NCBI GenBank assembly: GCA_044892525.1
Contig: CM097885.1
Coordinates: forward strand, 139,934,001-139,998,000
Length of the DNA: 64,000 bases
Origin: Schmidtea polychroa
Lineage: Eukaryota
Reading direction: 5' to 3'
Below are positions 6,401 through 37,323 of the stretch, in pieces. A program made the position numbers and the translations under genes. Numbering within the stretch: the stretch's first letter is position 1; each line of letters opens with the position of its first letter. The notes under the pieces are model-generated. The model saw only the letters and a list, made by a program, of their open reading frames with translations, was not told the origin of the DNA and did not search any database.

Positions 6401-7821
6401 TTGGCAGTGGAATTTCTCACCTCGAGCGCGATCTGATAGAGAATCTTTCGTTTTCTTTCATGAAGTCACGCCGAAGTTTCAGAGTAGATAATGTAAATTT
6501 CCAAAGTCGGAGACAATTTTTCGGATTGCGATCAGTAGTTCGTTGTTGTTAGGAAAACTTGCTTTTCCGTCGAATATTGATAGATGTCTGAGTAGGAATG
6601 GGCGATGAATTGTTAGAGTTTTCACTGGAAGATCTGCTAAGCACTTAAAAATTGAACCCCGAGAGGTACATTGCAGGGACATTAGCGAGTAAACCCATTC
6701 ATTGACTAATTTAGACTTTAGCTTGACATTGAATATCTGATAAAGTTTGGTTTGACGTTGACAGCGGCTCGTCTTAAATGGGAAAGTAAACAAATTTTTT
6801 GATAAGGAAATAAATCACTTGCCGTGAGTCCGAGTGAAGATATCAATAGCGATAGGAGAATCATTAGTTGCCCATGGCCAGATAAATTTCCGACGGGGAA
6901 AATCGGCTGATAATTTGATAAAGTCATCGAACGAGTTGATTGAGAAGGCGGCGGTCGATCGAATGTATTGAGTGGTCTTATCGTGAGTCGACCTAATATC
7001 GAAAATCCAGAATATAGAGTAATTTTTATCTACTGAATCCGCAAGTCACCCACACAATCGAATTTCTTGAGTTTTGGACACACCAACTGAGTACCCTTCA
7101 CAACTAGAGCATCTCTCTACAACTCTACCTCTATAAATCGCTCGCCCACATGTACACATGCATCACACTCAGATTAGGTCACAGTGCACATGTGGATATC
7201 ATCATTACCTAATCATAGGGAGAGAGTCGTACACTGATAACTGCTGGTAGACTACTGGATTGCGTCAGAGAACATGGCAATGCGACGAGAAATTTTTTTT
7301 TCTGTCAGTGTGCAAGTCGCTAGTTAAACGCACCAACATGCATCGTAACGAACCCATCGATAGTTGATGGTATAGATAGACAATCAAATGAACACATAAC
7401 TGCGCCCGATTTAAGCGTCACTATGACGATGTTTATGACGTTAAATTTGAAATAACAAATTTGTAATCCATGATAAAAATTTTAAGCGAGGGTATTATGA
7501 TTTTCTTACAAACCCGAGGGGTCTACATACAAGACGGGGTGTCCCGGTAATTGCCGATTTTCCGTTCATCATACAGCACGCGTAGAATCTAACGACGTAG
7601 CAGCAAAATGAGTAAAATATAATTGTTAAAATTTAACAACGATAATTAAGATAATAGCGTTCATAGTAACGAATTTACCGTTATGCCGTAGTTAAAAATA
7701 GTCAAACCCGTAAAGTAAACCTAAAAGCTAGCATAATGAATTGTTTTCATGAATCCCGTTTTCTTCTCATAAAGTAGTGATGATTACATGGGTCAGTTTA
7801 GATGTTTGAGATTGCATGAAG

Positions 7822-7963
7822 GTGAGTATTTGCCGACGGGGTAGATCGGTAGGCCACTCTTGGATAACTTGGTCGGGGAGGTCTTAAATTTCGTTTTCCG
7901 AACATATGAATAAGACCCCAGCGAATTTTTTTATTTAAAAATAAAAATTTCTTAACAATTTAG
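7822..7963 (+). other. Candidate 142-nt intron in the LTR preceding the LTR ORF
   Basis: Consensus donor AAG|GTGAGT at 7822. Branch-like TTAAC and acceptor TTTAG| lie directly before ATG 7964. The upstream ATG AAG (7816-7821) would join in frame. Confidence 0.55.
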
Positions 7964-8728
7964 ATGAATACTTCAACCAGTTCCGGGAAAACCCTCAGAC
8001 CTTGCTTTTCCTGTGCTGATAAAAATGCCGATATCGCACAGCTCCACTTGTACATCGGGGAATTGAAGAAGAGAATTGACCTCTATGAGGGAACGTGGTT
8101 CTCCCCACCACAAATGAAGGAGGAGAAGAGCAAGATTCTGCGTTTGGAGCACTGCCGTGACAGTCTCCTGGAAGAAAGCAGGTGCCAGAGGTTAACCATA
8201 AAGGCCCAATCAGAGGCACTGCACAAGGTGTATTCCGAATCAGAACTAGCGAAGCGAGTTCGCGAGTACCCGATACAAGATGGGACTAACGTGTTCCCAA
8301 TGCACCACAAATTAGCTGAAACCTCATCAATATCCAGTTGTAAAGGGCATGGCCCACAAATGCCGCCAATTCCCGCCCCAGTCCTTTCAGGCGATCGACC
8401 TATGGCTGGCGGTTCATCGGACCCTATCTTGGCTCCAGTACTCGTGCCACACCTCCTTCAGCCCCCAGCAGAAGCTACACTCCCCCATCGAAAGCGTAAG
8501 CGGCTGACGCGTTCTGAAAAAAATCAGAAGCGGAGGAATGCCATGGCCGCGCTCGAAGCATCGCTATCTGTAGCCACAGCAACTATCAAGGAAATTACAG
8601 TTACCCATTCCATTCCTACAAAGGAAGTATTCCGGGTAGTTCCGGCCGGTAGTATCAAATTCCTCGAAGACCGCCGGCTGCCCGTTGACATCGACGAGAT
8701 GCTCGCAGAGGGAGAAGCATTCTCGTAG
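7964..8728 (+). CDS. LTR-encoded 254-aa protein of unknown function (CxxC + coiled coil, Pro-rich linker, basic NLS-like HRKRKRLTRSEKNQKRR)
   Basis: Open, GC-richer ORF intact in both LTRs (one aa difference), with a diverged homologue at 1633-2205. Confidence 0.75.
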   Translation: MNTSTSSGKTLRPCFSCADKNADIAQLHLYIGELKKRIDLYEGTWFSPPQMKEEKSKILRLEHCRDSLLEESRCQRLTIKAQSEALHKVYSESELAKRVREYPIQDGTNVFPMHHKLAETSSISSCKGHGPQMPPIPAPVLSGDRPMAGGSSDPILAPVLVPHLLQPPAEATLPHRKRKRLTRSEKNQKRRNAMAALEASLSVATATIKEITVTHSIPTKEVFRVVPAGSIKFLEDRRLPVDIDEMLAEGEAFS

Positions 8729-9270
8729 CCAATTCTCTCTCGGGTCTCGATTCCCTGCTATTACGAACGAACTTGAAGAAGCGACGTTATCTCGTGACTA
8801 AACTTTAATGTTTTGCATTTACTTAAACAATGCTGAATGTAATTTGATGTTCCGTTCTAATATAACTGTTCGATTTTCTTTGATTGTGTTAATTGTATGT
8901 ATGATTTGCTACGGTTGAATTGCATGAGAGAAGGATCACGAATATATAGTAGAAACTTAAATGTCGTACCTTTTGGACCAGGGTCAGACTGAATGATGCG
9001 TATAGAATGGGTAAGACCTTCTAAGGCACCGTAGAACCCGAACCGAGAAAGGGTTAGGAGTAGTCCTAACGCAGGGGCTCACCTGCTAACTTTTTCCAAC
9101 CCGTGTGAGCAGTACCAACGTGGAACATCACCACGGGCTCATACGTGGGAATATGCGAACGATCATTTGGAGTGTGTGAGGGAATGGTCTGAGTAGAATA
9201 ATGATACCTGATGCGGATGATAATCATGCCCATACGTTTTCTTTTCCCCCACATACGCCAACATGATTTT

Positions 9271-9288
9271 TGGGGGCTCAGCCGGGAT
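9271..9288 (+). promoter_or_regulatory. E1 primer binding site, tRNA-Pro type
   Basis: TGGGGGCTCAGCCGGGAT, 7 nt after the LTR end. It resembles the complement of the tRNA-Pro 3' end (MuLV PBS TGGGGGCTCGTCCGGGAT). Confidence 0.85.
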
Positions 9289-11982: not shown

Positions 11983-14900
11983 TTGATTCGTGTAAGCAAA
12001 GGCAACACGATATCATATTTTCATTGTAGACATCCATCCAACCAAGTCAATTCAGAACCAGCTCAAGAGGAATCCAGAGAATATACAAACAACCCAGGAA
12101 AAGCAATTCAGAACCCGCACAAAGGAAGACAATATCAAAACCGAACTCGACCAATTCAGCAGACGCTAACCGTAGAAAATCCACGTGAAAAGACAGAAAA
12201 GAGTAAAAGGAAAATCACGGATAAACCCAACCTTAGATCTTCAAGTAAGCCAGGAGACGTATTATTTTCAGGAGACGAATTAGATCAACTCAAAAGAGGA
12301 CGATCATTTAGGCAGCAGAGAGGAATATCACAAGGAGCAAAAAGACCCCACAAAACACCGATATACGATCAAGAAAACCCCACAGCCGGACATACGCCCA
12401 GCCGATCTAGAAGTAGAGAAAGTCTATCCGATATAACAAACAACCTAACCGGGTCAACAGAAGAATTATCCGTCCATAGCTTAGCCACATCGCTGGAAAA
12501 TTTAAAAGAAATAATAGAGTTTCAAGAACCAATCAAGATGAATGTGGTAAAAACCGACGAGTATAAGGAAAAATTTAGAGGCGAACCATTCAACGGGAAT
12601 GCGAACAAGTTGGCAACGTTCATAACCAATTTTGAAGTCTATATTGATGTGTGTGGATGGACATCCGAAGCAATTAGTAAACGAATGCCTCTGTTTTTGT
12701 GCGATAGCGCACTCGAAGTATATCTGGAAGCAAAAGAAAGAAATACGAAATTAGACAATTGGGAAAACATCAAAACATTTTTGAGAAAAACATTCGGAGC
12801 CAGCAAACCGATAAACCAAGCGTTAGGTGAACTGGCAAGTAGAAAACAAAGAGCAAACGAGTCAATTACGTTATACGCAAGTGAATTGCGAAGATTGGCA
12901 AAGAAGGCCATGAACGGAAACTTGCCGGAGGAAAACTTAATTGGGTACTTCATAGAAGGACTACGCCGAGAAGAGGTAAGGGCCTCGGTGGGATGTCAAA
13001 TGTGTAAAACACTAGAGGAAGCTATAGATTGGGCCACAAGATGCGAACTACACCTCCCAGCACAAATGAACGTCATGCAAGAGGAGGGAAGAATCGCAAC
13101 AGCAACGGTGAAAACGGAAAATGGGGATAACAATAATCATGAACCCAAGATGAATCAGTTTATACCAGGAGCACATCAAATTTTCAAACCACCACAAGGA
13201 CGATCAAACGGGAATAACAGTGAACGCAACAACTCGAACAATGGGAACAACTTTAATAATCGACGAAATATGAACGATAACAAACAATGCCGAACATGCG
13301 GTAAACCAGGACATTGGGATAGAGATTGTTACCGAAACGCAAATTGCAATAGGTGTGGACGACGAGGACACACGGAAAATATATGCCAATCAAGAGGATG
13401 TTTTAACTGCGGGCAACTAGGTCATATCTCAAGAGACTGTCGAGAAAGGAGCCAACAACAACGACCACCACAGCGAAATAATAACTATGCACCAAATCCG
13501 CAACGACAAAGTAATCCTAGTGAGGGAAAGCAAATGAATGTGATGCAAGAAATTTCACAAATGAAGCAGATGATGCAACAAATGATGAGACCGAGACAAG
13601 AGCAAGTACCACAACCAACCCAGAATATACGCATGATGAGAAGCACCGAGAATCTTAACAATTATGAAGTGCAACAACATGCACAAGAATGGCAAAGACT
13701 ACAAGCTGAAGAAGAAAGGATAAAAAGAGAGCGAATTCAGCAGCGACAAGAACAACCACTACGAATAAATATGATGAGGATGGTAAAGGAGATAAAGGAG
13801 CAATATTGCTACAATTACGGTAAAAATCCAAGAGTTGTACCTATGAGCGAACCAGAGAAACTGAAGGAAACAATTACAGCAGCACAAAAGGAAAATTCAA
13901 CAACACCGCTAAAAGGAAATCAGAGAATTCAGAAAATATTTTGGAAAAAGATAAAAGATAAAATCGAAAGAGAAAATGAGCAAACAAAAACAGAAGCAGA
14001 AGCAGAAAATAACGAAAATGAAAAACAGATTAATCATCTAAAGCATAATATGATACGAGAATTAGACTCAGAGGAGCTAACGATACTCGAGAACAACAAG
14101 TTAAAGAAAGTACCAAGAATGAGAAATTTACGAATTAATATGATGAGGACAACAAAGAAGGTGTTGTCAACAGATGACGATGAGGATTATGTGAGTAGCC
14201 TTGGTGGAGAAATGTTACAGTTAAATGAAAATATCGACCAACTGAGAGAAAAGATCGGAGCAGATGAGGATGAAAGAGAAAGCGACGTGACAAGCGAAAG
14301 CGAAGACGAGAATATCGAAATGAAATTGAGAAAAGAAAGAGAAGAAGCGATAAAACAAGTAAAGGAAATACTTCCAGTGGTGGTAAGAAACCAGGAATTC
14401 ATTGACATCATACCATACCGACGCTTCATACAAAAGATAATGAAACTAGAAAGAAACGAAAAAGACCTAATACCAAACGAGGAAAAAGTGATAATAAAGA
14501 AGTATATGGAAAAAATGAAACAAGCGGAGACAACACGCTATGTAATAAAAATCGGAACGAGTAAAGGACTCGAGAGAATATGGATAAAAAATGCAGTCAC
14601 AGACGAGCTTTTTGATTGGATAAGAGAACATTTGGGCAGCTCGAGAAAGAAAGAGTATTTATATCAACATCAAGGAGAACAAATTAAGCCAGACATGCAC
14701 CTAATAGATGCATTGATCTGGCCAGGAGAAACTCAAATATTGAAATTGTATAAAGAGAAACAACCAGCAAATATTCACGAATGGGCTAAAGACGCCAAGG
14801 CCGAGTACGATTTTAACATCAAGCTGAAGCTGGAACAAATAAAACAATGCACCTTGCGACGAAATCTAGATAAATTAATCAAGCAAATCCAAGAACAAGT

Positions 14901-17900
14901 TGAGGATAATTGGGATTTGCTCATAACAAGACGAACTGCAGACATGCATGAGCTACTGAGCCGATTACGAGATACAGAATTGCTCAGGATGAGCGATTGG
15001 AGAACCATAAATTTGATCCACAAATATGGAAGGTTGAAAGAAACGCAACCGCAGAAATTAGAAATAACCATATGGTTACCAAACGAGGAGAAACGACGAA
15101 TAAAGATGAGTAATCAGAGTACGGTGGATGACTTAGTAACCAAGATAAACCAAGAGATAACGGAAAAAGTACAAAGCGAGAGTAGCGACGGGATGATAGA
15201 TGACGTAGTCATGATGTACGATAAAATAATATTACGGGCCGAGGACGACACCTCGCTAAGCGAAATGGGAATGTGGGATAATCATCAAATCATCAGAATA
15301 TTGCCCATGGACGAATTCCGAACAAGAGATATAACATACCAGAAAGAAATACGAGACAGGATGAAAACGCTATATCAAAAATCAGTAGAGATAATTGAAA
15401 TTCATCAACAGTGGCTAAAAGAAAAAGGGCTTCAAGGAAAAATAAAGAAACTAAGTGTTAGATCTTGCAGACGAACCCCATGGGAAAGGACGTGGAATGC
15501 GGAAAACAAAGAATGGGAAATCAGGAAAGGGATTTTCGTGGAAACAGACATTGGCGAGATAGAAAGCGAATCAGAAGAAGAGGAAGATGAACCTCCAAAA
15601 TACGAAGAGGACGAAATAGAATCGACATCGGACGACGAAAGCGAAACGGATGTTACATCAGAAAGTGAAACGGAAACCAGACATATTCATGCGATGAGAA
15701 AGAAAGAACGCGAATATGCCGATATGGACAGCGAAGAAGCGATGGAAGCTCGAGAACGAGAAGAGAAGGAAAGATATAAACAATTAGGTGATATCTTAGC
15801 AACGGGAACAAAAAATCAAAAACGTCAAGTAATAGCATTGGCTAACATCATCCTAAAGACATCAGAGAATATCCACAATCTAAGAGAAATGGCGAAAGCG
15901 ATTGAGGAATACAGACAATATAACGAATGGTACCCAGAACAGCTAGAACAAATTATTAGGAAATGGAGAAACCAAGAATGGGCACAAGATACCCAGGAAA
16001 GGTATCGTATCCGAGTCAAGTATCCCGACAAAAGCATTGAGGATACAGAAGTACATCCAACAACAAAGATCAGAGAGTTAAAAAAGAAATTAGCATACGA
16101 AACTCCATTTCACCTACAACTATTCGGAAAATCTCTGGATGATAATGCAGATGTCGGAATAACACCCATGAGATTGGGGGAGATCAATGTATTGACAATG
16201 GCAGAAACATTGGGAAAACCGATTAAAAGGAAGAACAAATCCAGTAAACCTACGAAAGGTAGCTTGAGTACACCAAGCCCTAACAAAGTGGCAAGTAAAA
16301 CGAATGAAACCGAGGAAATCGAGGAAATTATATTGGAAGACAGCGATGAAGGAGCTGGAGAAAGATCACCAATTCTGGTAAGATGGCCGACAGGAGCCGA
16401 AATATGGACAACAAGCCAACCGTCAACTAGCTATCAGCAGCCAAATAAGCTGAGTATCGAGGAAATTATCGATAATACAACAGAAACCGAAACCGACGAA
16501 CAATTCCAACGACAGAAAGGACTAACGAAAGCAACACCAGAAGGTCAAACGGACAAAATAATAGACGAATGGAACGAATGGCTGAGAAACAACGATAGCT
16601 CATTGCCAAGAACGGATAACGAGAGGAACCCGAATTATGAAAATACAAGGGAAGCCGGAACAATGATGGAAAAACGGGCAAAAGGGAGACCCAAGAAGCA
16701 AGGAGAAAAACCGGAATTTAAAACTAGAGAACAACTGAAACAAGAACAAGGACAAGTCAGATTAGAGAAACTAGATAAAATAGTGTGGGATCTAAAAGAG
16801 GCCCAGCCAACTATCGAAAGAGGCGAAAAATGGATACGAGAGCTAGTAAAAGATATGCTAATAATAACGAACCCACAATTGCGACGGTTATGGCAACGAA
16901 AAGTAGCAAGCGTAGACGCCAGACAACTATGGAATACAATATCCGGAATAATTCCGAAATTAATCAAAGAGAAGACAAAAACCACTAAAACCGATTGGGA
17001 AGAGACAAGAAGAGTAATTGAACAATTAACTTTAAACGCAAACGACGACGAACATCATTTAGTAGTGTTAACGTATCTAATGTACAATTTGATGGGATTA
17101 GCAGCAAGGAAAATACCTAACAAACAATTCGCAAATCATGTAGAAATGACCGTCACAATCATTGAAAATACAATCGAACCACATATCATCCGCGCCGGTG
17201 GGTGGAAAAGACTCATACAAGCGCCACGAAAAAACGAGCAAGAGAGATCAATGCAAATTCGGTTGAAGAAGTTACTAAATGAGCTAGAATGGGAATTGCC
17301 ATTGAAAGACCCAGCCAGCAGAAAAGCGTCGATTAATTCACTAATGATGACCATGATGATATGGATGCTCTGCACCAGTGGAGCCGCGGGATTTACTATT
17401 TACGACTGTGACAATTCGATAATAGGAGAAAGATACTCCCTGAGAGATATAGAGGAATGTAGACAGGCGTCTCCGAATAAATTAGATATAGTAAAAAAGA
17501 AAGTCTCCTATCACGTATACCAAGAATCAGATTTCATTAGAACGCAAGCTAGAGAATGCGTAGTATCGAAGAAAGTGTTGGCATATTACTGTGGACAATA
17601 CTCATATTCAACCCTCATATTACCTGGATTAGATAAAGAAATAGTACCTATACAACGGGAAGACTGTAAAGAGCTTTTTAGAACCGGAGCGATGAGAATC
17701 AGGGATGGAGTAACAATACACGGACAAAGCGGAATGATCAAGACAGAAAGTATCTATGTCGCCGGACGAGTAAAATCAACTGATGGATCATGTAACGGAG
17801 GCACATATACGATCAGAGGAGAGGTGATATCAGGAGTAGTAGTAATTGAGTCCTACACAGTGGAGTTGAAGGAATACGAAGCACAATTCGACGCAAACAA

Positions 17901-20900
17901 CTATCAAATGAAAACCAACCCAGCATGCAGAGCTACGGAAAACGTGTGTAGAACGGGAATTTCGACTATAATATATGAAGCTAACACCCAAAAATGCCGA
18001 CTCCAATTGTTAAAAAGTGCTCTATTCAATGAAGTAAAAGGAGAAATTTACGAAAACGAGGATGACGATGAAGAGAATGGAAACGTAAGGATGCGAAATG
18101 GGAAACCAGTTCCGCCATCCCCCAAAGAAAAGAGACTCACAACCCAAAAAACACCAACGGCATTAATTACAGATGACCCAGATATCGGCATGAGATTCAT
18201 TAGAGAAAAAGAGACCACCAAATGTGACAGCATAGTATACCGGACGAACTACGCAGGTATCTACATGTCAAGGCAAGTAATAGACCGAGCAGTGGGAAAG
18301 GTAGCAACAGAGGACGTAAAATTGTACCTGTACGCCAATAACAAAATGGACTTTTTATTTCACCGAGGACAAACGACAATGCAAAAAGTGTATTACGATC
18401 TTATACAAAATGACTGTTCATTGAATAAAGAGATACTAAAAACAAAATTAGCCATCGCAATAACACACCCAGATAACACAATGCCATCACTCCCGTTACC
18501 GGATGGACATTTTGGTAGAATGGTGGGAGAGGTAATGTATACATATGCATGTACCAAGACATTTGCGCGACTGCCAAGAAAGCCCACAATCCCACCAGGG
18601 AAATGTGCAAACGAGTTAGAAATTAGTTACAAGGGGCGAAACAGATTCGTTCAACCCGTCACTAGGATAATGAACCCAATTGGATTTTACCCGAACACCT
18701 TTAACTGTTCAAATGCATACGGACCGTTATATGAAAAACCCGATGGGAAATGGATAATGTTACCAGTAAAAACCGAAGTACAAGAGCCTAAAAAGTTTGG
18801 ACTAATAGAACTCGCAACAGAACAAGATTTCAAACCAATTGATGTGTCAAAAGCAGGTATGTACTCACCAGAGGATTTAGAAACGGCACGATTAAACGTA
18901 TTATTCCCAGCAAGACGGGAATCCATTCTATCGAATATGGTTACCATAACTGGGGGAACGAATTTCCAGTCAGGCCCCAATTACGAACTATTATTGTCAC
19001 CTGATCATTTTCAACAAGCCACGTCAAACATGATGAAAGCAATGTGGGGAAGATTTCTAGTATTCGGTCAAATGATGGCGGGAATATTGGGAATCATTCT
19101 TATTATCCAGATTGTCAGAGTAATATTAACTCAAATGTTAGCGTGTTTTGATATCTATAAGAGAGAAAAGAAGGTAAATTGGAAATTGATAGTAGGCTTT
19201 CTACCATTTTTGGCAAAAACAATGGTGTTGCACGGTCATTCTAAGGACATACACAGAATAAAACGATTGATCAAAATACTGACAAAAATAAAAGGAACTG
19301 ACGAGGAAGTCGGTAGACGATTTCGGAAAACAATGTATGATGAAGCAACAAGGACGCAACTGAAAAAGAACAAACCAAAATTCTTAGACAGATTTAGGAA
19401 TCGATCAAACAGCAGCGATAGTGATGATGACGACAACGGGAATGACAAATACCCATATCCAAGTAGAAACCCGAATGAAAAGCCAATAGAAACAGCACCA
19501 TATTGGGAGAAAGAAAAAACAAATACCTGGATAGCCAACGGAAGTTATATACCACCAGATATCGTTGGACAACAAACAGCTTTGACCATGACACAAAATA
19601 TGTATCCACAGTTACCAAGTCAACCAGGGATGAACTATATGCCGACCCGAAGAACGAAAAGTGTAGACCAAGCGGACGACGTAAGAACGATAGCAGTAAT
19701 GAGTTCACCAGGAGGTGCGGCAGTAACAGTCATGATCCAAATCAACGGGAAAGAGACAAGCGCAATGATAGATACCGGAGCAAACGTATCAGCAATAGCA
19801 ATAAACCAAATACCCAGTAAATGTTGGAAAGATATCGAACAAACAACTATCCATATTATTGCATGCAGTAAAGAAACCGTAGACGTAGTAGGAAGATGGT
19901 GGACTACGTTACGATATCAGGATAACGAAATTGAAACGTATCTAGCGGTGATACCCAAACTGAGTGAACCATGTATAATCGGAACGGATTTAATGCCGGA
20001 ATTGTTTAAGGAGGTAGTAATCGATTTAACAACAATGTGTCTAAAAGACAAAATGGGTAGAATATGCAAGATGAACGCAATAATTAGATGTCCGGAGAAA
20101 ATAATTGTACCCGCAAAATCACAGATGATATGTCAAATAAAAGTGGATGCAGGAATGGAAGGAGAAGTCATTTTTGAGCCAAGCAAATCATTCGAAAAAC
20201 GACGAGAATTACCATTAGCAAGAGAAATAATAACAATAAATGAAGACGGGGAAATACCAATTAACATCACAAATTTCGAGGAAGAAGACAAGATCATATA
20301 TGAAAATGAAAGATTGGGTAGATTGACACCCATGATAGACATCGAATTACCAAAAATCATCAACGAAACAACGAAAGCTGACGAATTATGGATAATTGAT
20401 AGCACCTTGCTAACGGAAAAAGAGAAGGAAAGACTTCAACAATTATTGATAGAATATAAAGATATATTCGCAATTTCGGATTTAGATTTGGGAGCATGCG
20501 ATGTTACATTACACGCAATACCATTAATAGACGAAACGCCAATCGCACTACGTCCATACAAACTAGCAGAGAAGCAAAAAGAGATAGCCGAAGTCGAAGT
20601 ACAAAAAATGCTAGATGCACAAGTGATCGAACCAAGTTGTTCGCCATGGCAATTTCCAGTAGTCATGGTGAAGAAAAAAGACGGTACTCAGAGATTCTGT
20701 ATCGATTATCGGAAATTAAATGCAGTAACAAAAAGAGACACATACCCGTTACCAGACATCAATGAGATGTTACTTATGTTACAGGGGGCCGCATATTTTA
20801 CATCTTTAGATCTAAAAAGTGGATATTGGCAGATCAAAGTCAAGGAGGAAGACAAAGAGAAAACAGCATTCACACTGGGCCGAGATCTATACCAATTCAG

Positions 20901-23900
20901 GAAAATGCCGTTCGGACTGACCAATGCCCCAGCATCATTCCAGAGATGTATGAATTTTGTCACACACGGGATCAAGCAGTGTATGGTATATATTGATGAT
21001 TTATTAATATATTCAGCAACATTCGAACAACATTTGGAAGATATCAGAAACGTGTTCGTTCGATTACGACAATGGAAACTGAAACTTAAACCATCCAAAT
21101 GTGATTGGGCAAAAGAAAAGGTTACGTTCTTAGGACACATAGTGTCAGCAAAAGGCAAAGAACCAGATCCAAGAAACATAGAAAAAATAAAAACATGTCC
21201 AGCACCAAAAACTGTCACCCAAGTTCAAGAATTTCTCGGATTATGCGGATATTATCGAAAATTCATCAAAAACTATGCAGGTATTGCGAAACCAATACAG
21301 GAATTAGTGAAAAAGGATATTTCATTTATTTGGGGTGCAGAACAACAAAAAGCGTTTGAAACATTGCGCGATAAATTAATCGAAGCCCCAATACTAGTAC
21401 ATCCTGATTTCAAGAAACCATTCCTATTAGCAACAGATGCAAGTGGATATGCAGCCGGAGCAATATTGGGACAACTCGACGAAGAAGGAAAAGAAAGAGT
21501 GATTGGATACTACAGTAGAACGTTTAAAAAACACGAGAAAAACTATTCCGTAACCGAGAGAGAAGCGTTAGCAATCATACAAGCAATTAAACACTTTCGA
21601 TATTTGTTATGGGGACACGAAATATGTATCACCACGGATCACCAACCATTAGTATGGCTTGGTCAACACAAAGAAGCTTCAAGTAGATTGATGCGATGGG
21701 CAATGCAGTTACAAGAATATTCACCGTTCATAAAATTCAAAGCGGGAAGAGCGAATGCCAATGCGGATTGTATGTCCAGATTTATCTTTCCAGATTTAGT
21801 AGATCACGAAATGCAACGAATATGTCTGATGGTAGCAGAAGATTTAGATTTTTGCCAATTACGGAAAGACCAACAAGAGGATACAGAGTTGAAGCAAATC
21901 ATTGAATATGTGAAAACAGGGAAAGCAGAGGTATATGAGAAAGATCAAAAATTGAAGGAGCATATGGATAAACATCGACATCGATATATTATCGAGAAAG
22001 ATTGGTTATTGATAATGGATGGCGAGAAAAGACTGATGTGCATTCCCGAGAATAGACGTAAAGATCTACTAACACAATACCATGACGGAAGACTCGGAGG
22101 ACATATGTCATCTAAAAAGACGTTGGCACGAATGAAACAAAAATATTTTTGGCCTACATTGACCGAGGATGTAGCGGAATGGGTGAAAAATTGCATAACT
22201 TGCGCAACCAGAAAAAACACGGGAACAAAATGGAAGGCACCATTAAAGCCTATGCCAGTGCCAGCAGAACCAATGACAATGATATCAATGGACGTAGTCG
22301 GTCCACTACCAGAATCAGATAGAGGAAATATATATATATTGGTAATCACAGATTATTTGACAAAATTCCCCGAAGCATTCGCAACGGCAGATCAGAAAGC
22401 AAGAACAATCGCAAAAATATTAGTAGAGGAAATATGTTGTCGATATGGAACGCCGAAACAAATACTGACGGATCAAGGAACGAATTTCATGAGCGAAATA
22501 ATGAGCGAAGTCACCAACTACTTCAAGATCGCAAAATTAAGAACATCACCGTACCATCCACAAACTAATGGTATGACAGAAAGATTCAATGGAACACTGA
22601 TTCAAATGTTATCAAATTATGTCGATCGTCATCAACGAGACTGGGATGAATATATAAAATTATGTCTAATGGCTTACAGAATGTCGATTCACGCGTCCAC
22701 AAAGATGAGTCCGTTCAAGTTGATGTACGGCAGAGAATGCAATATGCCAATGGATTTAGAATATCAGCCACCGATATCACAATACATGGAAATAGACGAT
22801 TATGTAACCAAGTTCAAGGAAAGAATGCAGGAAATCTGGGAAACCGCAGGATTGAATATAAAATTTTATCAAGAAAGTTACAAAGAGTTACATGATAGAA
22901 AGAAAAACGTCAAACAGCATACGTTTCAAACAGGCGAATGGGTGATGATTGAAACACCAGAATTAATTCCAGGAACCACCAAAAAATTACAACGAAACGG
23001 TAAAGGGCCGTATGAGATTCTATTCGTCGGAGAAACTAATGTAAGAGTACGATTAGTGAACAACCCTTTTACAAGACCAATATACGTAAATGTTGCACGA
23101 TGTAAGCCAATTCCGAAAACCGCCACCAGTCAGCCAGAAGGACGTACACTAACGACAAGATCACAAACGTATAGAATAAACATGTTACAGCAAATAAACG
23201 AACCAACAGGTAATCGATTAGGGTTACAACCATCAGAAGCCGAGAAAATCATAAAGGAAGTAAAAGTTAAAATGCCCGGATGGGCAGAAGACAGATTAGA
23301 TTTTGAGATATTGGGAGGTCTGCTAACAATGATCGAAAATTATGCAAACCGAGAAAGAACACACCCATTGCTCAGGGTAGTTAAAAGTCAATGGCCTATA
23401 TTATTCACGATCACAGACCATTACGGAGACACACCCCTGCACAAGCTTTTAAAGGTGGGTAGTAACGAACAGATATTAGAAACAATTGAAGCATTTCGCG
23501 ATTGTAACATTTCGACAGATCAAGAAAACAACCAAGGTTACACTCCACTAATGATAGCAGCCAATCGGGATAAAGCTAAAGATATTATCATCGCATTACT
23601 TGAAACTGGGTCAAAGATAACCACACAAGATCACAACCAGGAAAATGCATTACATCATGCAATCGAAGGGAAAAGTACGGAAGCCTTCATAATCTTAGTA
23701 GATCTATTATCGTACGAGGATAATAGAGAGATAGGAAACATGTATGACGGGCTATTAACTGCAATCAAAGAGAAATTAACAACAATTGCTGGAATACTAA
23801 TTGCATGGAGGAACCCGATAAAAAACGATTATATGGTAGATATAAACGAAACATTTACCAAAGGAGAAAACACCTTGATGAGAGAAGCGATGAGAGGACA

Positions 23901-26418
23901 TCACCTATTCGAAATTCCAAATCAACTACTACAACGTGGCATAAAATTCTCAAATCACAAAGACGAACAACTAATCAGAAAACGAATTACCAACTTCGAA
24001 AAAGCTATATCTCAATTTACCGATAAAGTACAAGTAAAATTTTGGGACACCGTGAGTGTTTTGCATATGATGGAAACTATGAACAACATTCGAGAAACTT
24101 ACCTAAGCATTATTCAAGTTCTAACGGCAGAGGAACGCATTAATAATTCGAACAAGAAAAAGATAAAAAGGAAGAAAGTAAAAGCAGGAGAGTCTGAGGA
24201 ACAAGTCGATCAACCAATAACCGATATAGCAACAACAAGTAAACCAAAGACAATAAACTCCGACCAAGAGATAGTAGTACGTAAGGCTAAAGAAGTATTC
24301 TTTGAAGAAATGCAAGATCTATCCGATGAAGCGATACTAGCAAAAATAACCAAAACAGTACACACCTACGCAAGAGATCAGACCACAAATCTAGACATAG
24401 GAAAAATAAAAACATTTATACCACTAGCATTCACCTTACCAACAAAAGACTCAAGAACACCATTACAACAAGCCATTTTAGCAGCAAAAGAGAACAGAGC
24501 AATAACCATCATAAGAATCCTCAGAGACTTCGGAGAAGAATCTAATGCAAAAAATGGACAAGGAGAAACAGCAATGATGTATGCAGCCATAACAAATATA
24601 CACCCGAAAACATTACATATACTACATCAATCAGGTTCGAGACTTGACGAAAGATCAAACGAAGGAAATTCTACCATGGATTGGGCAACAATACAACCAA
24701 ACTTGGAAATGATTAGATTCATTTGTAAAAATGCTACAAGAACTGAGGTAGAAAATATCTGTAAAAACACGTCACAGTTCCAATGGAACACGATACGGAT
24801 GAACTTAGAAGCCATGAAGTTGCTGCTAACATGGAGAATACCACAAAGCAATAAATATGCAATAAATATAAATGAGTTCTACGAAAACGGAGAAAATGCT
24901 ATGGTTAAAAATACACTAACAAAAGGAGGAACTCCGAAAATCATAATGATCGTATTAAACAGGGAAGATCTCAAATTCACGCAGAATCTAAACGAACAAA
25001 AGCGAATCGGGAAACATCGTCGGATACAATTAAGAGAATTAGTGAAAGAATGGAATAGAAAGAGACATGTAGCAACAGGCAGAAAGGAGTTCGAATTCGA
25101 AGCAAAATTAGCAAGAAACAGAGTGCTAACGGCATACCGCAGATTGTTGAATGATATAAATGTCGAGGACGACATTTTAAACGATAGCGGGGGAGATAAA
25201 GACGATAAAGACGATAAAGACGACAATAATAATGAAAAAGGTCGAAACGGGAATAAAGAGAAAGAGAAATCAGAGGAGAATAATCAAGAAAATAACGACG
25301 CGAGTAGGAAAAAAGAGGAAAATAACCCGAGAAACCGAATGAAGCAAGAAGAAAAGACGAATAGTGGAAAACAGAGGGTATGCCTACTTTTTACCAACAA
25401 AGAAATGGAGACAAATATGATGATAATGATACTCGTACTAACAATGGTGGAAATGATAACAGCCCAGGGAGGAATGAGAACGATAAAAGAAGCCAAAGAA
25501 ACGGAAAATAAGGACAACAAAGAGGAAGAACTAAAACAAGAAAAGAAAAAACAAGTACAAGAGCAGCAATGGGATCTAAAAGAAGAATGGGATTTAAAAG
25601 AAAGGTGTATATTAGGAAGATGTATGTCTAGAGCTTATCAGAGACTAGTGTTAAAAAATGAAGATGCAGAACCAATAACGGAAGTAAGAATACAAGAAGC
25701 ATACCGAAATCGAGAAGGAAAGAGAATAACGAAAGTTAAAGGGAAGGAAGTACACCTGGGAAAAGGAGGTGAGGTAGTGATAACGCAACTCCAGCCAAGA
25801 AAAGAACACAAAGTCTGCATCGCAAGATTAAGACCGGGTGAAGACTGTCTACAATATGTAATACAGCAACAACCTCCAAAAGAATACACAATATGCATCT
25901 GGAGAAAAGATACAGCGAGAGAATGTCGACGATACCCTGGGAAAAGAGGGAAGAAAAGAAAAATCGATGATGAAAAAGATGAGCAAGGAAAACGCAAGAA
26001 AACCAGTGAGAAACATCAAGACAATTATGTATCCGAAGAGGAGATGGAGAAAATACAAAAAATGGCAAAGGAAGGTATGAACGAGGAAATAGCAAGAATA
26101 CGAGGAATGATGAAAGGAAATGACAAAGACGGTAATCTAAAAAGCACAGAAGCAATATCAACAATAACGAGCAAGGAAGAAGCGGAAATTATAAGCATAA
26201 AACAGATGATGTGGATCAGCGGCATAATAATAACAGGGGCCTTTTTAATCATAACGGGGGGGACAATAAAAATAATCAAAGATAGACGGCATCACGGAGA
26301 ACTAGAAATGGCCAGAATAAGAAATTTCCAACATCGTGTAAAACGACCAAGTAATATCAAGCAGGAACAGTGGGTGGAGGCCTGGAATGCTCAGCGCCCT
26401 CCAAGCTCACGTATATAG
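11983..26418 (+). CDS. gag-pol: E1 single polyprotein (~4,811 codons open; first ATG 12538): Gag-Ubl x3-AT-hook-Bcl-2-like-glycoprotein-PR-RT-RH-IN-ANK-FN3/TM
   Basis: Three CCHC knuckles (13288-13440), protease IDTGA (~19768), RT YIDD (20989-21000), RNase H TDASG (~21433), integrase HHCC, DDE core and GPY motif (22080-23110). No internal stop. Confidence 0.97.
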   Translation: MIRVSKGNTISYFHCRHPSNQVNSEPAQEESREYTNNPGKAIQNPHKGRQYQNRTRPIQQTLTVENPREKTEKSKRKITDKPNLRSSSKPGDVLFSGDELDQLKRGRSFRQQRGISQGAKRPHKTPIYDQENPTAGHTPSRSRSRESLSDITNNLTGSTEELSVHSLATSLENLKEIIEFQEPIKMNVVKTDEYKEKFRGEPFNGNANKLATFITNFEVYIDVCGWTSEAISKRMPLFLCDSALEVYLEAKERNTKLDNWENIKTFLRKTFGASKPINQALGELASRKQRANESITLYASELRRLAKKAMNGNLPEENLIGYFIEGLRREEVRASVGCQMCKTLEEAIDWATRCELHLPAQMNVMQEEGRIATATVKTENGDNNNHEPKMNQFIPGAHQIFKPPQGRSNGNNSERNNSNNGNNFNNRRNMNDNKQCRTCGKPGHWDRDCYRNANCNRCGRRGHTENICQSRGCFNCGQLGHISRDCRERSQQQRPPQRNNNYAPNPQRQSNPSEGKQMNVMQEISQMKQMMQQMMRPRQEQVPQPTQNIRMMRSTENLNNYEVQQHAQEWQRLQAEEERIKRERIQQRQEQPLRINMMRMVKEIKEQYCYNYGKNPRVVPMSEPEKLKETITAAQKENSTTPLKGNQRIQKIFWKKIKDKIERENEQTKTEAEAENNENEKQINHLKHNMIRELDSEELTILENNKLKKVPRMRNLRINMMRTTKKVLSTDDDEDYVSSLGGEMLQLNENIDQLREKIGADEDERESDVTSESEDENIEMKLRKEREEAIKQVKEILPVVVRNQEFIDIIPYRRFIQKIMKLERNEKDLIPNEEKVIIKKYMEKMKQAETTRYVIKIGTSKGLERIWIKNAVTDELFDWIREHLGSSRKKEYLYQHQGEQIKPDMHLIDALIWPGETQILKLYKEKQPANIHEWAKDAKAEYDFNIKLKLEQIKQCTLRRNLDKLIKQIQEQVEDNWDLLITRRTADMHELLSRLRDTELLRMSDWRTINLIHKYGRLKETQPQKLEITIWLPNEEKRRIKMSNQSTVDDLVTKINQEITEKVQSESSDGMIDDVVMMYDKIILRAEDDTSLSEMGMWDNHQIIRILPMDEFRTRDITYQKEIRDRMKTLYQKSVEIIEIHQQWLKEKGLQGKIKKLSVRSCRRTPWERTWNAENKEWEIRKGIFVETDIGEIESESEEEEDEPPKYEEDEIESTSDDESETDVTSESETETRHIHAMRKKEREYADMDSEEAMEAREREEKERYKQLGDILATGTKNQKRQVIALANIILKTSENIHNLREMAKAIEEYRQYNEWYPEQLEQIIRKWRNQEWAQDTQERYRIRVKYPDKSIEDTEVHPTTKIRELKKKLAYETPFHLQLFGKSLDDNADVGITPMRLGEINVLTMAETLGKPIKRKNKSSKPTKGSLSTPSPNKVASKTNETEEIEEIILEDSDEGAGERSPILVRWPTGAEIWTTSQPSTSYQQPNKLSIEEIIDNTTETETDEQFQRQKGLTKATPEGQTDKIIDEWNEWLRNNDSSLPRTDNERNPNYENTREAGTMMEKRAKGRPKKQGEKPEFKTREQLKQEQGQVRLEKLDKIVWDLKEAQPTIERGEKWIRELVKDMLIITNPQLRRLWQRKVASVDARQLWNTISGIIPKLIKEKTKTTKTDWEETRRVIEQLTLNANDDEHHLVVLTYLMYNLMGLAARKIPNKQFANHVEMTVTIIENTIEPHIIRAGGWKRLIQAPRKNEQERSMQIRLKKLLNELEWELPLKDPASRKASINSLMMTMMIWMLCTSGAAGFTIYDCDNSIIGERYSLRDIEECRQASPNKLDIVKKKVSYHVYQESDFIRTQARECVVSKKVLAYYCGQYSYSTLILPGLDKEIVPIQREDCKELFRTGAMRIRDGVTIHGQSGMIKTESIYVAGRVKSTDGSCNGGTYTIRGEVISGVVVIESYTVELKEYEAQFDANNYQMKTNPACRATENVCRTGISTIIYEANTQKCRLQLLKSALFNEVKGEIYENEDDDEENGNVRMRNGKPVPPSPKEKRLTTQKTPTALITDDPDIGMRFIREKETTKCDSIVYRTNYAGIYMSRQVIDRAVGKVATEDVKLYLYANNKMDFLFHRGQTTMQKVYYDLIQNDCSLNKEILKTKLAIAITHPDNTMPSLPLPDGHFGRMVGEVMYTYACTKTFARLPRKPTIPPGKCANELEISYKGRNRFVQPVTRIMNPIGFYPNTFNCSNAYGPLYEKPDGKWIMLPVKTEVQEPKKFGLIELATEQDFKPIDVSKAGMYSPEDLETARLNVLFPARRESILSNMVTITGGTNFQSGPNYELLLSPDHFQQATSNMMKAMWGRFLVFGQMMAGILGIILIIQIVRVILTQMLACFDIYKREKKVNWKLIVGFLPFLAKTMVLHGHSKDIHRIKRLIKILTKIKGTDEEVGRRFRKTMYDEATRTQLKKNKPKFLDRFRNRSNSSDSDDDDNGNDKYPYPSRNPNEKPIETAPYWEKEKTNTWIANGSYIPPDIVGQQTALTMTQNMYPQLPSQPGMNYMPTRRTKSVDQADDVRTIAVMSSPGGAAVTVMIQINGKETSAMIDTGANVSAIAINQIPSKCWKDIEQTTIHIIACSKETVDVVGRWWTTLRYQDNEIETYLAVIPKLSEPCIIGTDLMPELFKEVVIDLTTMCLKDKMGRICKMNAIIRCPEKIIVPAKSQMICQIKVDAGMEGEVIFEPSKSFEKRRELPLAREIITINEDGEIPINITNFEEEDKIIYENERLGRLTPMIDIELPKIINETTKADELWIIDSTLLTEKEKERLQQLLIEYKDIFAISDLDLGACDVTLHAIPLIDETPIALRPYKLAEKQKEIAEVEVQKMLDAQVIEPSCSPWQFPVVMVKKKDGTQRFCIDYRKLNAVTKRDTYPLPDINEMLLMLQGAAYFTSLDLKSGYWQIKVKEEDKEKTAFTLGRDLYQFRKMPFGLTNAPASFQRCMNFVTHGIKQCMVYIDDLLIYSATFEQHLEDIRNVFVRLRQWKLKLKPSKCDWAKEKVTFLGHIVSAKGKEPDPRNIEKIKTCPAPKTVTQVQEFLGLCGYYRKFIKNYAGIAKPIQELVKKDISFIWGAEQQKAFETLRDKLIEAPILVHPDFKKPFLLATDASGYAAGAILGQLDEEGKERVIGYYSRTFKKHEKNYSVTEREALAIIQAIKHFRYLLWGHEICITTDHQPLVWLGQHKEASSRLMRWAMQLQEYSPFIKFKAGRANANADCMSRFIFPDLVDHEMQRICLMVAEDLDFCQLRKDQQEDTELKQIIEYVKTGKAEVYEKDQKLKEHMDKHRHRYIIEKDWLLIMDGEKRLMCIPENRRKDLLTQYHDGRLGGHMSSKKTLARMKQKYFWPTLTEDVAEWVKNCITCATRKNTGTKWKAPLKPMPVPAEPMTMISMDVVGPLPESDRGNIYILVITDYLTKFPEAFATADQKARTIAKILVEEICCRYGTPKQILTDQGTNFMSEIMSEVTNYFKIAKLRTSPYHPQTNGMTERFNGTLIQMLSNYVDRHQRDWDEYIKLCLMAYRMSIHASTKMSPFKLMYGRECNMPMDLEYQPPISQYMEIDDYVTKFKERMQEIWETAGLNIKFYQESYKELHDRKKNVKQHTFQTGEWVMIETPELIPGTTKKLQRNGKGPYEILFVGETNVRVRLVNNPFTRPIYVNVARCKPIPKTATSQPEGRTLTTRSQTYRINMLQQINEPTGNRLGLQPSEAEKIIKEVKVKMPGWAEDRLDFEILGGLLTMIENYANRERTHPLLRVVKSQWPILFTITDHYGDTPLHKLLKVGSNEQILETIEAFRDCNISTDQENNQGYTPLMIAANRDKAKDIIIALLETGSKITTQDHNQENALHHAIEGKSTEAFIILVDLLSYEDNREIGNMYDGLLTAIKEKLTTIAGILIAWRNPIKNDYMVDINETFTKGENTLMREAMRGHHLFEIPNQLLQRGIKFSNHKDEQLIRKRITNFEKAISQFTDKVQVKFWDTVSVLHMMETMNNIRETYLSIIQVLTAEERINNSNKKKIKRKKVKAGESEEQVDQPITDIATTSKPKTINSDQEIVVRKAKEVFFEEMQDLSDEAILAKITKTVHTYARDQTTNLDIGKIKTFIPLAFTLPTKDSRTPLQQAILAAKENRAITIIRILRDFGEESNAKNGQGETAMMYAAITNIHPKTLHILHQSGSRLDERSNEGNSTMDWATIQPNLEMIRFICKNATRTEVENICKNTSQFQWNTIRMNLEAMKLLLTWRIPQSNKYAININEFYENGENAMVKNTLTKGGTPKIIMIVLNREDLKFTQNLNEQKRIGKHRRIQLRELVKEWNRKRHVATGRKEFEFEAKLARNRVLTAYRRLLNDINVEDDILNDSGGDKDDKDDKDDNNNEKGRNGNKEKEKSEENNQENNDASRKKEENNPRNRMKQEEKTNSGKQRVCLLFTNKEMETNMMIMILVLTMVEMITAQGGMRTIKEAKETENKDNKEEELKQEKKKQVQEQQWDLKEEWDLKERCILGRCMSRAYQRLVLKNEDAEPITEVRIQEAYRNREGKRITKVKGKEVHLGKGGEVVITQLQPRKEHKVCIARLRPGEDCLQYVIQQQPPKEYTICIWRKDTARECRRYPGKRGKKRKIDDEKDEQGKRKKTSEKHQDNYVSEEEMEKIQKMAKEGMNEEIARIRGMMKGNDKDGNLKSTEAISTITSKEEAEIISIKQMMWISGIIITGAFLIITGGTIKIIKDRRHHGELEMARIRNFQHRVKRPSNIKQEQWVEAWNAQRPPSSRI
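14530..16200 (+). other. Three ubiquitin-like (beta-grasp) domains in the E1 polyprotein (~14530-14760, ~15052-15306, ~16000-16200)
   Basis: For example RYRIRVKYPDKSIEDTEVHPTTKIRELKKKL...HLQLFGKSLDDNADVG and LEITIWLPNEEKRRIKMSNQSTVDDLVTKI...DDTSLSEMGM follow the ubiquitin strand-strand-helix pattern. Confidence 0.6.
16672..17230 (+). other. AT-hook (KRAKGRPKK) followed by a Bcl-2-like domain in E1
   Basis: The BH2-like IIENTIEPHIIRAGGWKRL parallels Bcl-xL YLNDHLEPWIQENGGW, preceded by a hydrophobic alpha5-like helix HLVVLTYLMY. Confidence 0.7.
17341..19230 (+). other. env: Signal peptide + chuvirus(Jingchuvirales)-type glycoprotein ectodomain + TM in E1
   Basis: FTIYDC...YSLRDIEEC, CDSIVYRTNY, YANNKMDFLF...NDCSLNKEILKTKLAIA, GRMVGEVMYTYAC, CANELEI, GMYSPEDLETARLNVLFPA and TM ~19051-19140 match the Cys/motif pattern of chuvirus glycoproteins. 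Confidence 0.8.
23419..24960 (+). other. Two blocks of ankyrin repeats after the E1 integrase
   Basis: GDTPLH, GYTPLMIAA and QENALHHA in block 1; SRTPLQQA, GETAMMYAA and GNSTMDWA in block 2. Confidence 0.9.
25405..26418 (+). other. C-terminal type I membrane module of E1: signal peptide, FN3-like ectodomain, TM, short tail
   Basis: SP METNMMIMILVLTMVEMITAQ, FN3-like VVITQLQPRKEHKVCI, TM MMWISGIIITGAFLIITGGTIKII. Confidence 0.65.
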
Positions 26419-26586
26419 AAAGGATTATGACTGTATATAGATTGTAAAAAGTAAGTAGGAAATATTTATTTATATAACAGTATTCTATATTTTTATATAA
26501 GCGCGGTATCAATAGTATATAATGATGGGGATAATTAATATGAAAATAAAATTAGATAAGGATTGAAAAGTATATATAAATTAAGA

Positions 26587-26946: not shown

Positions 26947-27035
26947 ATATAACCTAACATAGCAATGTAAATAAATGTAAATAAAAATACGAAACTGTAC
27001 CTGTAACGAATATATGTATATATATAATTATAGAA

Positions 27036-28424: not shown

Positions 28425-28641
28425 AGAGACGAATAATTTTGTATATACTAATTGTAAATATCGGCGTATATATCCAGTAAAATATTATATAGTAGTGTAG
28501 AAAATTCCCCCAAATCTACCAAAGGTAAACTTAAGCGAAAACTCCTAAAACAACTCCTATAACGAATTATAAAAATAAATAAATAATAAACCAGATATAA
28601 GCGTACAACGTTAAGTTAATGATATCGTTATTTAGACAAAG

Positions 28642-30554: not shown

Positions 30555-30609
30555 TTAAAGATGAATGATCAATGTAAATAATTGTAAATAAAAATTTTCG
30601 TATAGTAGT

Positions 30610-31467: not shown

Positions 31468-34400
31468 TGTTGGGCTAAAATGCGGAGTGGAGAAAACTGG
31501 AGCGAATAGAAAAATAAACCCCGAAAGATAGATGAAATAAAATAAAAATATAAAGTACCATAAAAATCTTACTAGTAAATAGGAAGGAACAATAAAAGAA
31601 CAACAAAAGAATAAGAATAAGTAAACAAACTAAATAAAATCCAATAAACCCCTTAAGATTTAGAAATAAAACGGGTTAAGGTACACAGCGGATAAAATAG
31701 AAATAGAATAAGTAAAAAAGTGACAACAAATAAAAGAGAAATTTAAGAAATAAATAAAAAATAAAACTATCTTTAAGTCTAATTAAAACAAAAAATTATA
31801 TTACAATAAAGTAGCAATAAACCTACAGGAAAAATAGGAGGAAAATAATAAAAATAAGAAAATAAATAAAATAATAATAAGAAATAAGTTAAGTCATTAA
31901 AATCTAATATATTATAATAAAAAACATAAAAATGATAATAAATAGTAAAAATACAAGCAGGTAGCGTCCTGATTGGACGAAAAATACTATATATGTAACG
32001 TGAAAAATTAGACGACAACCACTTTTAATTTTTCACGATTACAGGTAAAATTTTAGAAAAACTTAAAACCACTTTTAATTTTTCACGATTACAGAGCATA
32101 GACTTCAGATATTTCACCGAATTCAGGACTAGAATCGCAAACACTAATTCCAGAGATTTTCAGAACTTACCTTTAATTTAAATTCGATTTCGTTCCAGTT
32201 TTTGAAACTATCAGTAGGTTGATTGATTTATATGTATTAGTTAATTCATTAATGATGAAAAACAAAACTCATTTCGTAAAATAAATTTATTGAAATACAA
32301 ATGGCCTTTTCTTCATGGTGCCGGCGACTGTACCATCTGAGAGCTCCCAGTATGATGTGGACGAGTTGGAAATGTACCACGGTAGAGAACACGACAGTGG
32401 GAAGGTTGACCTTCTTAAGAAATCCCGAAGATGCTGAAAATGAGAATGTGATATTTGCAGAGAAAGATATTTACCATAGGAGAGATCTACCAAGGGTATG
32501 ATGAGGCTGCGGTTGTGTGGAATGAATAACATCATACTTGGAGTCCAAATGATAGGGTCGCCGGGTGAGCTTTATTGATTCATTTATTCTTTATTGATTC
32601 ATTTATTTTTATTGATTCATTTGCTGCTATTTGATTCCTTCATTCATTTTATTATTCATAAATTGTATATTAAATATTGATTTTGTGAAAAACGAGTCGA
32701 ACGGTCCCTCATGACGATGCAAGAACGGCGGCAGAGATGATTGCCTTCTTGGGTGGGTCATGAGGGGTGAGGAGACTCCGCAGGTGGAATACTGTTGGCA
32801 GTGGAATTTCTCACCTCGAGCGCGATCTGATAGAGAATCTTTCGTTTTCTTTCATGAAGTCACGCCGAAGTTTCAGAGTAGATAATGTAAATTTCCAAAG
32901 TCGGAGACAATTTTTCGGATTGCGATCAGTAGTTCGTTGTTGTTAGGAAAACTTGCTTTTCCGTCGAATATTGATAGATGTCTGAGTAGGAATGGGCGAT
33001 GAATTGTTAGAGTTTTCACTGGAAGATCTGCTAAGCACTTAAAAATTGAACCCCGAGAGGTACATTGCAGGGACATTAGCGAGTAAACCCATTCATTGAC
33101 TAATTTAGACTTTAGCTTGACATTGAATATCTGATAAAGTTTGGTTTGACGTTGACAGCGGCTCGTCTAAAATGGGAAAGTAAACAAATTTTTTGATAAG
33201 GAAATAAATCACTTGCCGTGAGTCCGAGTGAAGATATCAATAGCGATAGGAGAATCATTAGTTGCCCATGGCCAGATAAATTTCCGACGGGGAAAATCGG
33301 CTGATAATTTGATAAAGTCATCGAACGAGTTGATTGAGAAGGCGGCGGTCGATCGAATGTATTGAGTGGTCTTATCGTGAGTCGACCTAATATCGAAAAT
33401 CCAGAATATAGAGTAATTTTTATCTACTGAATCCGCAAGTCACCCACACAATCGAATTTCTTGAGTTTTGGACACACCAACTGAGTACCCTTCACAACTA
33501 GAGCATCTCTCTACAACTCTACCTCTATAAATCGCTCGCCCACATGTACACATGCATCACACTCAGATTAGGTCACAGTGCACATGTGGATATCATCATT
33601 ACCTAATCATAGGGAGAGAGTCGTACACTGATAACTGCTGGTAGACTACTGGATTGCGTCAGAGAACATGGCAATGCGACGAGAAATTTTTTTTTCTGTC
33701 AGTGTGCAAGTCGCTAGTTAAACGCACCAACATGCATCGTAACGAACCCATCGATAGTTGATGGTATAGATAGACAATCAAATGAACACATAACTGCGCC
33801 CGATTTAAGCGTCACTATGACGATGTTTATGACGTTAAATTTGAAATAACAAATTTGTAATCCATGATAAAAATTTTAAGCGAGGGTATTATGATTTTCT
33901 TACAAACCCGAGGGGTCTACATACAAGACGGGGTGTCCCGGTAATTGCCGATTTTCCGTTCATCATACAGCACGCGTAGAATCTAACGACGTAGCAGCAA
34001 AATGAGTAAAATATAATTGTTAAAATGTAACAACGATAATTAAGATAATAGCGTTCATAGTAACGAATTTACCGTTATGCCGTAGTTAAAAATAGTCAAA
34101 CCCGTAAAGTAAACCTAAAAGCTAGCATAATGAATTGTTTTCATGAATCCCGTTTTCTTCTCATAAAGTAGTGATGATTACATGGGTCAGTTTAGATGTT
34201 TGAGATTGCATGAAGGTGAGTATTTGCCGACGGGGTAGATCGGTAGGCCACTCTTGGATAACTTGGTCGGGGAGGTCTTAAATTTCGTTTTCCGAACATA
34301 TGAATAAGACCCCAGCGAATTTTTTTATTTAAAAATAAAAATTTCTTAACAATTTAGATGAATACTTCAACCAGTTCCGGGAAAACCCTCAGACCTTGCT

Positions 34401-37084: not shown

Positions 37085-37086
37085 TT

Positions 37087-37104
37087 TGGTGCCGCGAACC
37101 GGGA
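37087..37104 (+). promoter_or_regulatory. E2 primer binding site, most like tRNA-Phe
   Basis: TGGTGCCGCGAACCGGGA, 2 nt after the LTR. The vertebrate Phe PBS is TGGTGCCGAAACCCGGGA. The assignment needs the host tRNA set. Confidence 0.7.
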
Positions 37105-37323
37105 CTTTAAAATCAATTATTGTTATTCACAATTTGGGGGATAGGAATTGAGATCAGAGGGTATAGTATTTTATATTGGGAAAATATATTTATAAAAACA
37201 ATATCATTGACCAATTTTTAAATAAATAAATTCAGTTTTGAAAATTATTAAATAATTCAAAAAGATAAAATAGATAATCAACCCGAAATAGTTTATAATC
37301 TCAGAAATAGAATAGTCTATAGG

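Follow-up and report, generated by a model that had tools for sequence, protein, structure and literature searches.

Proposed membrane-threaded layout of a single-frame Gag-Env-Pol polyprotein in a giant planarian gypsy element

The element, its copies and its neighbour

The window analysed here, a stretch of 64,000 nucleotides of Schmidtea polychroa (assembly GCA_044892525.1, contig CM097885.1, positions 139,934,001 to 139,998,000), carries a Burro-type gypsy element of 30,584 bp (~30.6 kb; Table 1). The two 4190-bp LTRs are bounded by TG...CA, are 99.93% identical to one another and have the target-site duplication CGAC on both sides. Paired LTRs, a target-site duplication, the order PR-RT-RH-IN and a gypsy-type RT place the element in Ty3/gypsy, and the nearest solved structure to its Pol region is Ty3 Gag-Pol. 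The likely primer-binding site may resemble a tRNA-Pro site. Further downstream, the leader contains a tandem array of ~80-bp units (10723-11326), and the 185 codons upstream of the start codon (11983-12537) are in frame with it and hold neither a stop nor an ATG.

The domains of the long ORF are ordered by Pfam as gag (aa 51-144), CCHC, Monjiviricetes fusion glycoprotein, protease, RT, RNase H, integrase and ankyrin. The labels that a sequence-only reading of this locus had given to gag, the glycoprotein G, PR-RT-RH-IN and ANK are thereby borne out. Its Ubl and Bcl-2 labels correspond here to weak matches, both under the curated Pfam cut-offs (ubiquitin E 0.016, Bcl-2 E 0.028; the latter reaches E 1.7e-6 in the neighbouring element described below), and its FN3 label is suggestive only. 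Cargo of the Burro type is present, with strong matches for ankyrin and TRAF and weak ones for Ubl and Bcl-2.

This giant gypsy element is young. A genome search with 2.5 kb of it returned 641 candidates, and the 40 that were scored had identities of 98-100%. Ten of these 40 copies, six from the top and four from the bottom of the list, were compared with the present one. That no stop or frameshift lies between Gag and Pol, as the sequence-only reading had stated, holds over the 4626 codons here; in 10/10 other copies there is no frameshift from gag to RT, and in 7/10 the whole ORF is free of stops and of net frameshifts. The single reading frame is a family trait. Purifying selection acts on the entire ORF, linkers included, with pN/pS values across the 10 copies of 0.01 for the envelope, 0.02 for the Bcl-2-like core, 0.04 for Gag and Pol and 0.22 for the FN3-like module. 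Two of the ten copies (L124 and L126) have a common one-base insertion at aa 3846 of the ORF, in the ankyrin region upstream of the second signal-like segment, through which the C-terminal membrane module would be lost.

Another element of this clade, divergent in sequence and likewise carrying all four hydrophobic segments, begins 378 bp beyond the first; identity between the two is 34% in the envelope and 48% in RT. Its frame is broken near 39,000 by a short private deletion. A programmed gag/pol frameshift was considered at this split and rejected in favour of copy-specific damage, because the frame stays open at this point in 25 of the 30 best copies. This element also carries a 718-aa accessory ORF (46449-48605) with no Pfam match.

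Table 1. Features of the two elements in the window, with positions counted from its first nucleotide.
Feature	Position	Strand	Remarks
5′ LTR	5074..9263	+	4190 bp; TG at start, CGAC just before
254-aa ORF within each LTR	7964-8728, 34358-35122		
Likely primer-binding site	9271..9288	+	
RING-finger accessory ORF	9739-10218		
Gag-(Ubl, Bcl-2-like)-Env-Pol-ANK-membrane-module ORF	12538..26418	+	4626 aa, uninterrupted
Gag capsid domain and three CCHC knuckles	12688..13440	+	Retrotrans_gag E 1e-9, zf-CCHC E 3e-10; predicted cytosolic
Two weak ubiquitin-like matches (aa 835-930, 1145-1225)	15040..16212	+	below curated cut-offs
Bcl-2-like domain core	17005..17214	+	~40 residues upstream of SP1
SP1, putative internal signal sequence	17344..17391	+	predicted signal-peptidase cut between G1618 and F1619
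gB-like class III fusion protein ectodomain	17392..19053	+	PF24664, 14 cysteines; predicted luminal
TM1, envelope anchor	19054..19116	+	21 uncharged residues
LIVGFLPFLA short hydrophobic stretch	19186..19215	+	likely on cytosolic membrane face, not spanning
Protease, RT (YIDD), RNase H, integrase	19729..22560	+	Pfam; predicted cytosolic
Ankyrin repeats, two blocks	23479..24624	+	Pfam; predicted cytosolic
SP2, second internal signal-like sequence	25417..25470	+	weakest of the four segments here
Beta-sandwich, FN3/Ig-like	25603..25902	+	low-confidence model; predicted luminal
TM2	26206..26268	+	then basic 49-residue tail, predicted cytosolic
Full TRAF-like accessory ORF (RING, zinc fingers, MATH)	27036-28424		
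Two coiled-coil-like accessory ORFs	28642-29679, 29853-30554		
Small accessory ORF	30610-31236		signal-like start and second hydrophobic stretch
3′ LTR	31468..35657	+	CA at end, CGAC just after
Second, divergent element, same clade	36037..49546	+	same four segments; identical LTRs, TTAA duplication

The envelope and the first membrane pair

A hydropathy scan of the ORF with a 19-residue KD window located hydrophobic segments at aa 1603 (nt 17344, KD 1.40), aa 2179 (nt 19072, 2.53), aa 4294 (nt 25417, 1.66) and aa 4562 (nt 26221, 1.94), each within a few codons of where a signal, an anchor, a second signal and a second anchor had been placed beforehand. In the same scan LIVGFLPFLAKTMVL scored 1.41. 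We consider it probable that the polyprotein crosses the ER membrane four times in this order, so that the envelope and the C-terminal FN3-like module would be luminal, with Gag, Pol and the ankyrin repeats remaining cytosolic. All topology calls were made from hydropathy and an insertion scale. The segment counts given below come from a crude insertion score on that scale, with our own weighting and a strict and a loose threshold, applied to 18 polyproteins; these sequences are related to one another and the counts are not independent.

The envelope matches the Pfam Monjiviricetes fusion glycoprotein (PF24664) with E 6e-72. Foldseek found HSV-1 gB (E 1.4e-13, TM-score 0.40) with an AlphaFold model of the ectodomain (pLDDT 89.2), and the modelled fold is of the herpesvirus gB type, class III. 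Searched by sequence, the envelope had no match among solved structures and one weak match only among viral contigs. Each of its 14 cysteines is at least 90% conserved across 120 sequences, which fits the expectation for a disulfide-bonded luminal domain; N-glycan sequons are depleted (15 observed vs 34.6 expected).

The alignment of stand-alone relatives of the envelope supplies a register for SP1. In 90 of the 112 rows added to it, a Met start is followed at most 80 residues on by [YF]DC (at most 40 residues on in 86 of those 90), and A, G or S occupies the position four residues ahead of the Y, that is -1, in 69 of the 90. Judged from these motifs, the stand-alone relatives have an ordinary N-terminal signal peptide, with which SP1 aligns in register. 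Applied to the present protein, this register predicts a cut with CTSGAAG before it and FTIYDC after it, and with small residues at -1 and -3. At the loose threshold SP1 was missed in 3/18 polyproteins, one of which begins inside the envelope whilst the other two have short hydrophobic cores. Additional hydrophobic segments ahead of SP1 were scored in 5/18 polyproteins at the loose threshold and in 3/18 at the strict one; from their position and look, those of L061 and L091 are likely to be the core helix of the Bcl-2-like domain, which is normally buried.

Two departures from this first signal and anchor were weighed, and even together they appear very improbable: SP1 may stay uncleaved, leaving Gag joined to Env, or the LIVGFLPFLA stretch downstream of TM1 may be a true second span, placing Pol in the lumen. 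An uncleaved SP1 would have a parallel in some gB-type ectodomains that are described with two flanking transmembrane domains and no signal peptide (PMC13524379), and is at odds with the small residues at -1 and -3. The second span was the very event that the sequence-only reading had named as flipping Pol into the lumen, and the stretch is indeed conserved and hydrophobic (KD 1.2-1.7), exceeding the loose threshold in P0018. However, in 13/13 polyproteins its position holds exactly 10 uncharged residues, with K on one side, K/R on the other and a central Pro, vs at least 21 in TM1. Amongst stand-alone relatives KD19 reaches at least 1.6 at this position in 8/103, vs 91/103 for TM1, and Asp replaces the central Pro in 40/106. 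With only 10 uncharged residues around a Pro, LIVGFLPFLA is unlikely to span the membrane. Moreover, a luminal RT and integrase would be cut off from RNA and nucleus, which is hard to square with a young and abundant family. Helices of the gB tail lie along the cytosolic face of the membrane, and this is most likely also where LIVGFLPFLA lies.

Counting from TM1 to the end of integrase gives an even number of segments in 18/18 polyproteins at the strict threshold and in 17/18 at the loose one, with P0018 as the exception. In L084, a metagenome contig, an extra cassette of signal, FN3-like domain and anchor (aa 1585-1771 of its long frame) follows two protease-like copies and lies ahead of the protease-RT. 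Because the cassette was gained as a signal/anchor pair, Pol would stay cytosolic, as four crossings require. Two or more protease-like domains are found among several relatives (L084 and P0001-P0004).

The second membrane pair, RNA evidence and proposed processing

A signal-like and an anchor-like segment follow the integrase in 11 of the 14 sequences whose frame passes it; the frame of the remaining 4 of the 18 polyproteins ends earlier, which puts them outside this count. The three exceptions are L087, in which the frame stops after the signal, P0005, which has neither segment, and P0020, a distant relative in which a signal-like segment is followed by a different, cysteine-bearing domain replacing the FN3-like module. 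In the present copy this module is modelled as a six-strand sandwich (pLDDT 60.5), with which Foldseek gave a best FN3 E of 0.015. Structural Z scores against FN3 domains were 6.3-6.5, none reaching 8, and FN3 domains are frequent amongst the best structural matches, none of which is significant. Pfam fn3 was matched in one of six modules (E 0.16) and not in the present copy, and an ESM Atlas search with the module returned no usable match. The FN3 identity of the modelled domain is suggestive.

SP2 was missed at the strict threshold and its n-region is acidic. Two amino-acid changes fall within it among the 10 copies, and none within SP1, TM1 or TM2. N-glycan sequons in the module number 50 in nine sequences vs 28.7 expected, and 0 in the present copy, where the module also has the higher pN/pS noted above. 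These observations would suit a decay of SP2 in the present family, with SP1 and TM1 as proposed, the FN3-like module in the cytosol, TM2 as a tail anchor and three crossings in all. We regard this as quite unlikely: the homologous segment in relatives is a clear signal, a module pN/pS of 0.22 indicates that purifying selection persists, and the 5 K/R on the C-terminal side of TM2 vs 1 on its N-terminal side favour a cytosolic tail. Comparison with relatives has strengthened the four-crossing layout of the sequence-only reading in the register of SP1, the lack of an extra span, the even parity and the recurrence of a second pair, whilst the compartments, cytosol or lumen, are what we infer from the segments.

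At the RNA level, contigs of four runs, which are unreliable for strand and splicing, were compared with positions 11400-31399, and 0/15 joints listed had GT..AG ends. Loose ends in poly-A at 14325, 22217 and 26168 are each formed by one or two contigs, with no poly(A) signal upstream. A spliced leader was considered for the loose ends at 24065 and 26041 and rejected; most positions there match genomic letters, which makes them sequence variants. Within the ORF, of which 42% is A, there are 16 in-phase slippery heptamers.

Capsids require much more Gag than Pol, and this general need is one point in favour of a reading in which spliced or prematurely ended RNAs yield Gag, Env or the FN3-like protein apart, the full polyprotein is minor and the signals are partly ordinary N-terminal ones. 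Such a reading could also draw on the Met codon that starts both SP1 and SP2 in the present family, and on Cer1, a single-frame gypsy element reported to have a spliced mRNA (PMC10309623). On balance we think it unlikely. In 3/13 polyproteins Met is absent within 55 residues of the SP1 cut, and the signal there must thus be internal; purifying selection on the frame as a whole, linkers included, also speaks against it; and a crude scan, which is a weak test, picked up only 2 acceptor-like sites along the ORF, which is rich in purines, and neither lies right ahead of SP1 or SP2.

Under the four-crossing layout, the N-terminal 1,600 residues would be synthesised in the cytosol, SP1 would then start translocation, TM1 would act as stop-transfer and SP2 with TM2 would carry out a second translocation cycle. 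Host signal peptidase would cut at the predicted SP1 site and near aa 4311, leaving three membrane-bound products: Gag-Ubl-Bcl-2, held at the membrane through the SP1 stub; Env with PR-RT-RH-IN-ANK as its cytosolic tail; and a small type I FN3-like protein. The element protease would next release the cytosolic domains, perhaps at the recurrent motif described below, and Pol would come to the budding site via the Env tail and not as a Gag-Pol read-through product. The 1:1 output of Gag, Env and Pol proposed in the sequence-only reading would hold only with unspliced RNA.

A four-residue motif recurs at domain borders at aa 177, 333, 410, 533, 1050, 1216, 1599, 2512, 3095, 3547 and 4281, and thus also directly upstream of SP1 and SP2. 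It is a candidate protease site, defined post hoc from the element's own protein and not general in relatives.

More tentatively, we propose that these elements may be enveloped retroviruses with a two-protein surface, a gB-like fusogen and an FN3-like attachment protein, which have dropped Gag-Pol read-through, with Pol riding on the Env tail and Gag on a signal stub, and in which membrane cassettes can be gained pairwise anywhere.

Comparison with known systems

Burro and GYPSM1, giant gypsy-like elements of planarians, are described as ~30 kb long with long LTRs and one ORF near 4,900 aa, which encodes gag, three CCHC knuckles, Ubl, a Bcl-2-like domain, an in-frame env between gag and pol, and ankyrin, with TRAF as a domain or an accessory ORF; the position of env was reported in 2019 (PMC6431247). 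Matched by this description, the present element agrees in size, long LTRs, an ORF above 4,500 aa, cargo and gene order (PMC6431247). Terms for signal peptide, topology and fibronectin have 0 occurrences for Burro in the accessible text of PMC6431247. Elements of GAG-ENV-POL order with a gB-type envelope are reported from flatworms, nematodes and bryozoans (PMC13524379). The Platyhelminthes gB-type errantiviruses of Chary and Hayashi share order and envelope type with the element described here, and DeepTMHMM was used there to bound the ectodomains by a signal peptide and a TM (PMC13524379). By eye, our envelope is closest to that of Smed_errantivirus_5 and the neighbouring element's to that of Smed_errantivirus_3 (PMC13524379). 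The words 'polyprotein', 'in-frame' and 'fibronectin' are absent from the main text of PMC13524379, and the location of Pol and a second membrane protein after integrase are not discussed in its accessible parts. The claim that such a strategy is not typical of retroelements was overstated: in-frame gag-env-pol is in print (PMC6431247, PMC13524379), as is Atlas virus (PMC9094657). The gene order is thus already published; the literature searched contained no description of the membrane layout, and neither the four crossings nor a second membrane protein downstream of integrase appeared in the text, figures excluded, of the two closest papers.

As a rule, retroviral Env is translated from a spliced RNA of its own, and Pol is packaged as part of a Gag-Pol fusion. 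Should the four-crossing layout be true, this clade handles both Env production and Pol packaging differently. For a gB-like fusogen without gD or gH/gL, the attachment partner is named as an open gap (PMC13524379), and the FN3-like module would be a candidate for that partner if the layout holds. Moreover, with cuts and compartments predicted, direct tests become possible of how some of the most abundant elements of planarian genomes are assembled.

The flavivirus polyprotein consists of a capsid, an internal signal, a luminal glycoprotein, an anchor and cytosolic enzymes, and is processed by host signal peptidase and its own protease. The likeness to flaviviruses drawn by the sequence-only reading stands as a shared strategy and fails as kinship: Flaviviridae have a class II envelope and an RdRp, whereas the element has a class III fusogen, RT and integrase, and a predicted luminal module after the enzymes. 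Among retroelements, Atlas virus provides a precedent for threading a polyprotein through the membrane: this nematode belpaovirus is described as encoding Gag, Pol and Env, in that order, in one polyprotein whose membrane helices and host cleavage sites resemble those in phlebovirus glycoproteins (PMC9094657). It differs from the present element in being of BEL/Pao type, with Env last and of class II, and in having no enzyme downstream of the luminal domain (PMC9094657).
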